Source: Escherichia coli (GTDB taxonomy: Bacteria > Pseudomonadota > Gammaproteobacteria > Enterobacterales > Enterobacteriaceae). Taken from it: a stretch of 64,000 nucleotides of DNA. The translations under genes and the position numbers were made by a program. The notes beneath the pieces are model-generated. The model ran no database searches. It had not been told where the DNA came from and worked only from the letters and a program-made list of their open reading frames with translations. The stretch lies in NCBI RefSeq assembly GCF_003018255.1, contig NZ_CP027440.1; one strand, 5' to 3'. Shown piece by piece: positions 56,803-59,800 of this stretch (within the stretch, counting starts at the first letter, position 1; every line of letters starts with the position of its first letter).

Positions 56803-59800
56803 ATGAGCGGAAAACCGGCGGCGCGCCAGGGCGACATGACGCAGTATGGCGGTAGCATTGTCCAGGGTTCAGCCGGGGTGCGCATCGGTGCCCCCACCGG
56901 CGTGGCCTGTTCGGTGTGCCCCGGCGGGGTGACGTCCGGCCATCCGGTCAATCCGCTGCTCGGTGCGAAGGTCCTTCCCGGCGAAACCGACCTTGCCCTG
57001 CCCTGCCCGGCCCGCTGCCGTTCATCCTCTCCCGCACCTACAGCAGTTACCGGACAAAAACGCCCGCGCCGATGGGGAGCCTCGGCCCCGGCTGGAAAAT
57101 GCCTGCGGATATCCGCTTACAGCTGCGCGATAACACACTGATACTCAGTGATAACGGCGGCAGAAGCCTGTATTTTGAGCACCTGTTTCCCGGTGAGGAC
57201 GGTTACAGCCGCAGCGAGTCACTCTGGCTGGTGCGCGGCGGCGTGGCGAAACTGGATGAAGGTCACCGGCTGGCCGCACTCTGGCAGGCGCTGCCGGAAG
57301 AGCTTCGCCTGAGTCCGCATCGTTATCTGGCGACGAACAGTCCGCAGGGGCCGTGGTGGGTATTCGGCTGGTGTGAGCGGGTGCCGGAGGCGGATGAGGT
57401 GCTGCCTGCGCCGCTGCCGCCGTACCGGATACTGACCGGGCTGGTGGACCGCTTCGGGCGCACACAGACGTTTCACCGTGAGGCTGGCGGCGAATTCAGC
57501 GGCGAAATCACCGGCGTGACCGACGGCGCAGGCCGTCACTTCCGGCTGGTACTGACCACGCAGGCGCTGCGGGCAGAAGAGGCCCGGCAGAAGGCCACTT
57601 CCGGCGGGACGGAACCGTCCGCTTTTCCTGATACCCAGCCGGACTACACGGAATATGGCCGGGACAACGGTATCCGTCTGTCTGCCGTGTGGCTGACGCA
57701 CGACCCGGAATACCCGGAGAATTTACCTGCCGCGCCGCTGGTACGCTATGGCTGGACGCCGCGCGGCGAACTGGCGGCGGTGTATGACCGCAGCAATACA
57801 CAGGTGCGCAGCTTTACTTACGATGATAAATACCGGGGCCGGATGGTGGCGCACCGTCACACGGGCCGGCCGGAAATCCGTTACCGTTACGACAGTGACG
57901 GGCGGGTGACAGAACAGCTAAACCCGGCAGGCTTAAGCTACACGTATCAGTATGAGAAAGACCACATCACCATCACCGACAGCCTGGACCGCCGTGAAGT
58001 GCTGCACACGCAGGGCGAAGGCGGGCTGAAGCGGGTGGTGAAAAAGGAACACGCGGACGGCAGCGTCACGCAGAGTCAGTTTGACGCGGTGGGCAGGCTT
58101 AAGGCACAGACGGATGCCGCAGGCCGGACGACTGAGTACAGCCCGGATGTGGTGACCGGACTCATCACGCGCATCACCACGCCGGATGGCAGGGCATCGG
58201 CGTTTTACTATAACCACCACAGCCAGTTAACGTCAGCCACCGGGACTGACGGGCTGGAGTTGCGCAGGGAATATGATGAATCCGGCCGTCTGATTCAGGA
58301 AACTGCCCCTGACGGCGATATCACCCGCTACCGTTATGATAATCCACACAGTGACTTACCCTGCGCAACGGACGATGCCACCGGCAGCCGGAAAACCATG
58401 ACATGGAGCCGTTACGGTCAGTTGCTGACCGTCACTGACTGTTCCGGTTATGTAACCCGTTATGACCATGACCGTTTTGGTCAGATGACGGCGGCGCACC
58501 GCGAGGAAGGGCTGAGTCAGTATCGCGCATACGACAGCCGTGGACAGTTAATTGCGGTGAAAGACATGCAGGGCCATGAAACGCGGTATGAATACAACGC
58601 CGCCGGTGACCTGACCGCCGTCATTGCCCCGGACGGCAGCAGAAACGGGACACAGTACGATACGTGGGGAAAGGCCATCCGTACCACGCAGGGTGGTCTG
58701 ACGCGCAGTATGGAATACGATGCTGCCGGACGGGTCATCCGCCTGACCAGTGAAAACGGCAGCCACACCACCTTCCGTTACGATGTACTCGACCGGCTGA
58801 TACAGGAAACCGGCTTTGACGGCCGCACACAGCGTTATCATCACGACCTGACCGGTAAACTTATCCGCAGCGAGGATGAGGGGCTGGTCACCCACTGGCA
58901 CTATGACGAAGCAGACCGCATCACGCACCGCACCGTGAAGGGTGAAACCGCAGAACAGTGGCGGTACGACGAACGCGGCTGGCTGACACAAATCAGCCAT
59001 CTCAGCGAAGGCCACCGGGTGACGGTGCATTACGGGTATGATGAGAAAGGCCGCCTGACCGGTGAGCGCCAGACGGTGCATCACCCGCAGACGGAAGCAC
59101 TGCTCTGGCAGCATGAGACCAGACATGCGTACAACGCGCAGGGACTGGCGAACCGCTGTATACCGGACAGCCTGCCCGCCGTGGAATGGCTGACTTACGG
59201 CAGCGGCTGGCTGGCAGGCATGAAACTCGGCGACACACCGCTGGTGGATTTCACCCGCGACCGCCTGCACCGGGAAACGCTGCGCAGCTTCGGCCGTTAT
59301 GAACTCACCACCGCTTATACCTCTGCCGGGCAGTTACAGAGCCAGCACCTGAACAGCCTGCAGTATGACCGCGATTACACCTGGAACGACAACGGCGAAC
59401 TCATCCGCATCAGCAGCCCGCGACAGACCCGGAGTTACAGCTACAGCGACTCCGGCAGGCTGACCGGCGTCCACACCACCACCTCAAATCTGGATATCCG
59501 CATCCCGTATGCCACGGACCCGGCAGGCAACCGCCTGCCCGACCCGGAGCTGCACCCGGACAGCACCCTCAGCATGTGGCCGGATAACCGTATCGCCCGT
59601 GACGCGCACTATCTTTACCGGTATGACCGTCACGGCAGGCTGACAGAGAAAACCGACCTCATCCCGGAAGGGGTTATCCGCACGGATGATGAGCGGACTC
59701 ACCGGTACCATTACGACAGCCGGCACCGGCTGGTGCACTACACGCGGACACAATATGCAGAGCCGCTGGTCGAAAGTCGCTATCTTTACGACCCGCTGGG

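Follow-up and report, generated by a model that had tools for sequence, protein, structure and literature searches.

The best homologue of solved structure for the gene described here is Tse5 of Pseudomonas aeruginosa (PDB 8cp6; E=2e-126), a T6SS Rhs effector. Residues 1 to 47 of Tse5 are a PAAR-like fragment needed for secretion, while residues 48 to 124 (DUF6531) form the N-terminal plug of the cage (PMC10684867). A PAAR domain is stated to be required for Rhs translocation in PMC7216683, which cites Ma et al. 2017 on this point, and for the rhsA/B/C clade the cognate VgrG has been reported as unclear (PMC7216683). Much closer to our sequence is the intact RhsA of Escherichia coli, a member of the rhsA-rhsB-rhsC clade, whose orthologue in CFSAN061763 lies at the same locus, shares 97.7% amino acid identity and has an identical toxin tip and immunity gene.

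We analyzed the rhsA gene found in a stretch of 64,000 nucleotides of the E. coli contig NZ_CP027440.1, referred to here as the window. Once repaired by the removal of one repeat unit, its product has the layout of Tse5, in which a short N-terminal fragment precedes the DUF6531 plug, which in turn is followed by the YD shell and then by the toxin; residue 48 of the query aligns with the first residue of the Tse5 shell fragment. As it stands in the window, and compared with intact E. coli RhsA, the frame is broken after codon 67 by an extra TGCCC. Unlike the intact Tse5, whose toxin forms pores, the window gene is broken within the plug, and its tip is a different domain with a weak resemblance to metallopeptidases. 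Given a frameshift after Pro67, the layout of Tse5 places the break inside the plug, so that the PAAR-like N-terminus is cut off from the shell and the toxin. Very probably, one tandem duplication of 5 bp made rhsA a pseudogene and has since been inherited, and copied to paralogues, within a lineage.

The rhsA locus and its modules

The gene is rhsA, the RHS element core protein gene located at the selB-selA-yibF locus of the E. coli chromosome, as identified by the presence of yiaY, selB, selA and yibF upstream. Otherwise, the window consists of typical E. coli backbone genes extending from eptB to yibH. The features considered below are the following.

55966 to 56574, minus strand: yibF, glutathione S-transferase, a conserved neighbor marking the rhsA locus
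56803 to 60950, plus strand: rhsA, inactivated by one frameshift; 4148 nt, or 4143 nt without one repeat unit; RHS_core match
56803 to 57141, plus strand: upstream frame of 112 codons, with 67 native residues, 45 out-of-frame residues and a TGA
56938 to 57176, plus strand: DUF6531 N-terminal plug region (Pfam PF20148, E=2.1e-18, residues 46 to 123 of the repaired protein), interrupted by the frameshift
56994 to 57008, plus strand: (TGCCC)3 tandem repeat, one unit of which is the 5-bp insertion; in the other register GCCCT GCCCT GCCCG GCCCG
57009 to 60548, plus strand: remaining plug, YD-repeat shell and Rhs-associated core, open in the second frame
60549 to 60950, plus strand: variable C-terminal toxin tip (residues 1248 to 1380), with an HEMGH motif and a weak metallopeptidase resemblance
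61008 to 61418, plus strand: candidate cognate immunity gene, 136 aa, intact, positioned downstream of the tip
61507 to 62308, plus strand: orphan module, with a short toxin-tip remnant (61507 to 61782) followed by an Imm57 family immunity gene (61787 to 62308)

The repaired protein matched NCBIfam NF041261 (RHS_core) along residues 1 to 1247 with 2611 bits (cut-off, 2000), as well as YD repeats (TIGR01643, E=1.3e-39) and the Rhs-associated core (TIGR03696, residues 1170 to 1247, E=1.4e-22). At the N-terminus, the match of residues 2 to 20 to the Pfam PAAR_motif was weak (E=0.14). The toxin tip, which is 100% identical to that of the intact CFSAN061763 orthologue, gave a match below significance to Pfam Peptidase_M91 (E=0.003). 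The 136-aa open reading frame (ORF) behind it is identical to WP_000861664.1 of CFSAN061763 and is therefore conserved along with the tip; it had no match among NCBIfam families, and its position suggests a putative immunity gene. Further downstream, the orphan module looks like a displaced toxin tip plus its immunity gene, since the remnant has a weak match to Tlde1_dom, an L,D-transpeptidase-like toxin (E=0.0011), and the Imm57 assignment is given by both the RefSeq annotation and Pfam PF15596. No T6SS or VgrG genes are encoded within the 64-kb window, and a promoter and terminator scan of positions 56500 to 57400 found nothing.

Elsewhere in the window, a gene coding for a Fic family protein is located between aldB and yiaY (approximately 49869 to 51215). 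It is also present in the JNE strains and KTE75 (see below) and absent from CFSAN061763 and GCA_946062125.1, the alignments to both of which break at approximately 51216. In GCA_946062125.1, the 2328-nt selA-yibF flank that we compared is identical to that of the window.

The TGCCC repeat and its consequence for the reading frame

The tract consists of TGCCC-TGCCC-TGCCC at positions 56994 to 57008, followed by GGCCC, and is flanked by GAAACCGACCT on the 5' side and GGCCCGCTGCCGTTC on the 3' side. Positions 56995 to 57010 can equally be written as G-CCCTG-CCCTG-CCCGG, and Tandem Repeats Finder placed a period-5 array at 56994 to 57013. No other pentamer is repeated perfectly three times anywhere in the 64-kb window (shuffled-sequence mean, 0.06). 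Intact rhs alleles have two units (TGCCC-TGCCC-GGCCC or GCCCT-GCCCG-GCCCG), and the alignment to the intact CFSAN061763 allele showed a clean 5-base gap exactly at the repeat.

Downstream of codon 67 (Pro67), the reading frame is displaced by 2 bases owing to the extra TGCCC unit. The frame opened by the ATG at 56803 runs from the MSGKPAARQGDMTQYGG start (MSGKPAARQGD) to GETDLALP and then continues out of frame (CPARCRSSS) to the TGA at 57139 to 57141; its 67 native residues correspond to the PAAR-like N-terminus and the first 22 residues of the plug. The second frame is open from 56916 to 60950, i.e., 1344 codons without a stop. When one unit was removed in silico, we obtained an uninterrupted frame of 4143 nt and 1380 codons. 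The frameshift is the sole disabling lesion of the gene. A preliminary description of this DNA had proposed that a 5-bp tandem duplication frameshifts an Rhs gene near its 5' end, with the N-terminus through ETDLALP in one frame and the remainder in another, and had suggested a comparison with intact rhs alleles. This was borne out to the base by the sequence, the translations of both frames, the 5-base gap and the repair by deletion of one unit, and the comparison gave two units in the intact alleles versus three in the window.

As to the origin of the lesion, the conserved 5' end of rhs contains a short run of near-identical pentamers, a substrate for slipped-strand mispairing, and the repeat structure suggests that strand slippage during replication probably added one unit, which would be the simplest event. 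The 2-base shift after Pro67 falls within the N-terminal plug domain, and translation from the native start is predicted to stop at the end of codon 112. This leaves the 1313 native codons of the shell and toxin without the native start and the PAAR-like N-terminus, so that a deliverable toxin would not be expected. The downstream immunity gene remains intact. The downstream frame is still open in most carriers of the duplication (the KTE75 scaffold is gapped there). Either a young lesion or continuing gene conversion would be expected to give this pattern, and selection for the product would look alike. Both the tip and the immunity gene match their counterparts in the intact orthologue at 100% identity, which, together with the presence of a single lesion, fits a fairly young pseudogene.

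Distribution of the duplication and exchange among rhs paralogues

To find the repeat in other genomes, we compared a 601-nt query to complete E. coli genomes, in which a best match of 596 nt denotes two units and one of 601 nt denotes three. The best match extended over 596 nt in 3879 complete genomes and over 601 nt only in two JNE genomes. A 43-mer able to seed only on the three-unit form, run on 5426 complete E. coli genomes, found it in the same two, JNE23-011 (two places) and JNE112863 (one place); among the 13459 rhs 5' ends of complete genomes, the duplication is thus present in 3. A protein identical to the truncated product of 112 aa has been deposited as ELE52104.1 from E. coli KTE75 (GCA_000351685.1). 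Nine more contigs also encode it, which come from NCBI drafts, one Logan assembly and five assemblies of gut metagenomes, all of them (9/9) with the same DNA repeat. Altogether, the same 15-nt repeat was found in JNE23-011, JNE112863, KTE75, GCA_018683095.1, GCA_946062125.1, ERR9955105 and five metagenome contigs.

The public records with the identical duplication include the pseudogenes ACXDC2_RS21365 (JNE23-011) and ACXDCZ_RS18430 (JNE112863), both labeled "frameshifted" by RefSeq, and ELE52104.1 (KTE75). These alleles are 99.8 to 99.9% identical to the window at the DNA level, with differences at 19 to 20 rhs positions arranged in a mosaic pattern. The window gene is an ordinary pseudogene, and public genomes with the identical allele already have it labeled as frameshifted. 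Its correct annotation is one frameshifted rhsA pseudogene and not two genes (a 112-aa "RhsC" plus a 1283-aa Rhs, as produced by some pipelines). The frameshifted rhsA of JNE23-011 has an additional in-frame deletion of 72 bp (window positions approximately 59155 to 59221; near 8451 to 8455 of its own locus) that is absent in the window and JNE112863. The window, in turn, has two private bases compared with all other carriers and the intact allele, C at 56826 (T elsewhere) and A at 57072 (G elsewhere), the second of which turns GTG (Val) into an in-frame ATG. Both private single nucleotide polymorphisms (SNPs) may be real or assembly noise.

Along the 2328-nt selA-yibF flank, carriers with the duplication at the rhsA locus (JNE23-011, KTE75, GCA_946062125.1 and one metagenome contig) had 0 to 3 differences from the window (0 to 0.13%), versus 23 in the intact CFSAN061763. 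These near-identical flanks indicate a single lineage in which the duplication is identical by descent. Compared with JNE112863, the window has 11 SNPs in the first 50 kb (outside rhs, approximately 0.02%) and 20 more in the next 12.6 kb, without gaps; the 11 SNPs in 50 kb indicate that it comes from a separate isolate. In the complete-genome set, the duplication was absent from the next nearest relatives of the lineage. Judging from these sequences, the lesion is lineage-wide rather than private to the window strain, and the mutation is apparently fixed at rhsA in one clonal lineage represented in Japan (the two JNE genomes), by KTE75 and in human gut metagenomes.

An assembly error, the true genome having two units and an intact gene, had been proposed in the preliminary description as the alternative to a recent pseudogene, and it deserves consideration because multi-copy rhs cores are poorly handled by short-read assemblers, the KTE75 scaffold has a 1950-N gap inside rhsA and the window carries its two private SNPs in the rhs 5' end. 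We regard it as extremely unlikely, as no fewer than 11 assemblies produced independently by different projects share exactly this insertion. Among them are KTE75, two closed genomes that another laboratory generated, two drafts, one Logan assembly and five metagenome contigs. The insertion also tracks the lineage, with carriers that are nearly identical in their flanks, and over the 62.6 kb compared with JNE112863 it is the sole length difference from the intact-type allele, the window and JNE112863 being gapless relative to each other. The frameshift should not be "corrected" as an assembly error. The other half of that proposal stands: the gene is a pseudogene, and "recent" is a reasonable term given the sole lesion, the tip 100% identical to that of the intact orthologue and carriers approximately 0.02% apart outside rhs. 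If the lesion is real, a functional Rhs might still be restored by recoding, either through reinitiation or because ribosomes undergo programmed -1 frameshifting. The second frame is open downstream, -1 is the direction needed, and single-codon re-pairing is formally possible at CCG 57007, AAA 57058 and AAA 57097. Nevertheless, the overlap (56856 to 57141) contains no slippery heptamer of the X XXY YYZ type, and the 121 nt spanning the site have a minimum free energy of -30.6 kcal/mol, compared with an average of -35.8 for shuffled versions (z=+1.5), i.e., they are less stable than shuffled sequence. Furthermore, the two-frame form is not conserved, with 3879 single-frame genomes versus 2 with two frames, and a protein encoded in one frame by 3879 genomes indicates no history of selection for recoding. 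We thus rejected programmed -1 frameshifting. The ATG at 57099, 40 nt before the upstream stop and the start picked by gene callers, is a candidate for low-level reinitiation, although a protein started there would be missing half of the plug as well as the PAAR-like N-terminus, and the PAAR domain is reported to be needed for Rhs translocation (PMC7216683). Recovery of a functional Rhs by either route is scarcely credible, and we retain the inherited loss of rhsA by duplication.

The identical truncated product was found at the yibF (rhsA), nikR (rhsB) and ybfA (rhsC) loci. Along approximately 14 kb of the rhsC locus, JNE23-011 and JNE112863 differ by one SNP outside rhs plus two clusters of SNPs, one with four SNPs (window-equivalent positions 56862 to 56886) and the 5-bp unit and another with five SNPs (59915 to 60056). 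At every clustered site, the rhsC of JNE23-011 has the rhsA base. The linkage of rhsA bases to the 5-bp unit in this gene identifies a conversion tract of at least 137 nt that brought the frameshift from rhsA to rhsC. In the loci designated L006 and L012, the SNP haplotype upstream of the duplication is a different one, and these copies could derive from shorter conversion tracts or from independent slippage.

A similar pattern was observed at rhsA itself. The window and JNE112863 differ at 31 positions, 19 of which fall within the 4.1 kb of the gene (binomial p=2.6e-15), at a density of 4.6 per kb in rhs versus 0.2 per kb outside (12 in 58 kb), i.e., 23 times higher. The rhs differences span positions 56826 to 59528 and form patches matching other rhs paralogues. 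This patchy excess agrees with the signature of intragenomic gene conversion. As mosaic imports from paralogues, these differences would be uninformative about selection on this copy, and clonal phylogenies should be built without the SNPs that lie inside rhs. The case is of modest interest in that an inactivating lesion was copied from rhsA to rhsC together with linked SNPs; loss-of-function alleles can thus be spread by conversion in the rhs family and, in principle, also be repaired by it.

Other indels at the repeat and comparison with phase-variable genes

The same site has been altered more than once. At an rpmE-rhs locus (L022), we found a GCCCT duplication on an allele with ATC instead of CTT directly 5' of the repeat and a base difference 22 nt downstream, and in six other loci (L016 to L021) the neighboring GCCCG unit is duplicated within a flank that is 2.1% divergent. 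These differences indicate that both duplications are independent of that in the window. In GCA_964242085.1, from an unrelated lineage, rhsA and rhsC both have the GCCCG duplication (L016 and L017), so here again the frameshift is common to paralogues. Nine distinct frameshift variants were found in the 90% cluster of the truncated product, three of them checked at the DNA level. Several truncated Rhs N-termini (P0003 and P0005 to P0009), seen as protein only, have other indels within the same stretch of approximately 20 nt (for example, ETTSPCPPRCR, ALPAPARCR and ALRCR).

Searches of complete genomes with 44-mers did not find these two other types of 5-bp duplication. The 44-mer for the GCCCG unit gave only partial matches of 28 nt, corresponding to an in-frame Leu-to-Arg SNP allele (ETDLARPGPLPF) of the KE55 type without duplication. 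That for the L022 type, of limited specificity since normal CTT alleles are matched by the 28 nt at its 3' end, gave only partial matches of 28 to 31 nt to normal-type alleles beyond the two JNE genomes. At the nikR-rhsB locus of E. coli KE55 (L023, positions 2490 to 2530), TGCCC has changed to GGCCC, replacing Leu66 by Arg in frame. This intact rhs gene thereby acquires three perfect GGCCC units in a row, (GGCCC)3, and the allele was found in 4 complete genomes.

The accumulation of indels within the same 15 to 20 nt, with nine distinct frameshift products on record, raises the question of whether the pentamer tract is a contingency locus that switches rhs OFF and ON at useful rates, particularly as gene conversion can carry both states between paralogues. 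We consider this very unlikely. Known phase-variable repeats are far longer than 2 to 3 units, and the tract has only that many perfect ones, three here and two in the ancestor. There is no variation in repeat number at rhsA, where all the carriers examined have three units, and the difference between the sister strains at rhsC comes with linked SNPs, which indicates conversion and not slippage. The rarity of the duplication among rhs 5' ends of complete genomes, together with the failure to find there the two other 5-bp types, also argues against frequent switching. The evidence taken together favors a single duplication in rhsA that was inherited and occasionally copied. There is perhaps a slim chance of a weaker version of switching, in which the (GCCCN)3 tract would be a recurrent slippage hotspot that, combined with conversion between paralogues, would act as a low-rate copy-and-paste OFF/ON switch for Rhs toxin sets, an intact paralogue restoring the function.

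The opa genes of Neisseria are a known example of phase variation by a pentanucleotide tract. The lesion described here is alike in its nature, as in opa type switching a change in the number of 5-nt units within the coding region likewise shifts the frame. In contrast to opa, the allele of the window is very rare in the species, none of its close relatives has been seen switching, and the whole change amounts to a step from 2 to 3 units.
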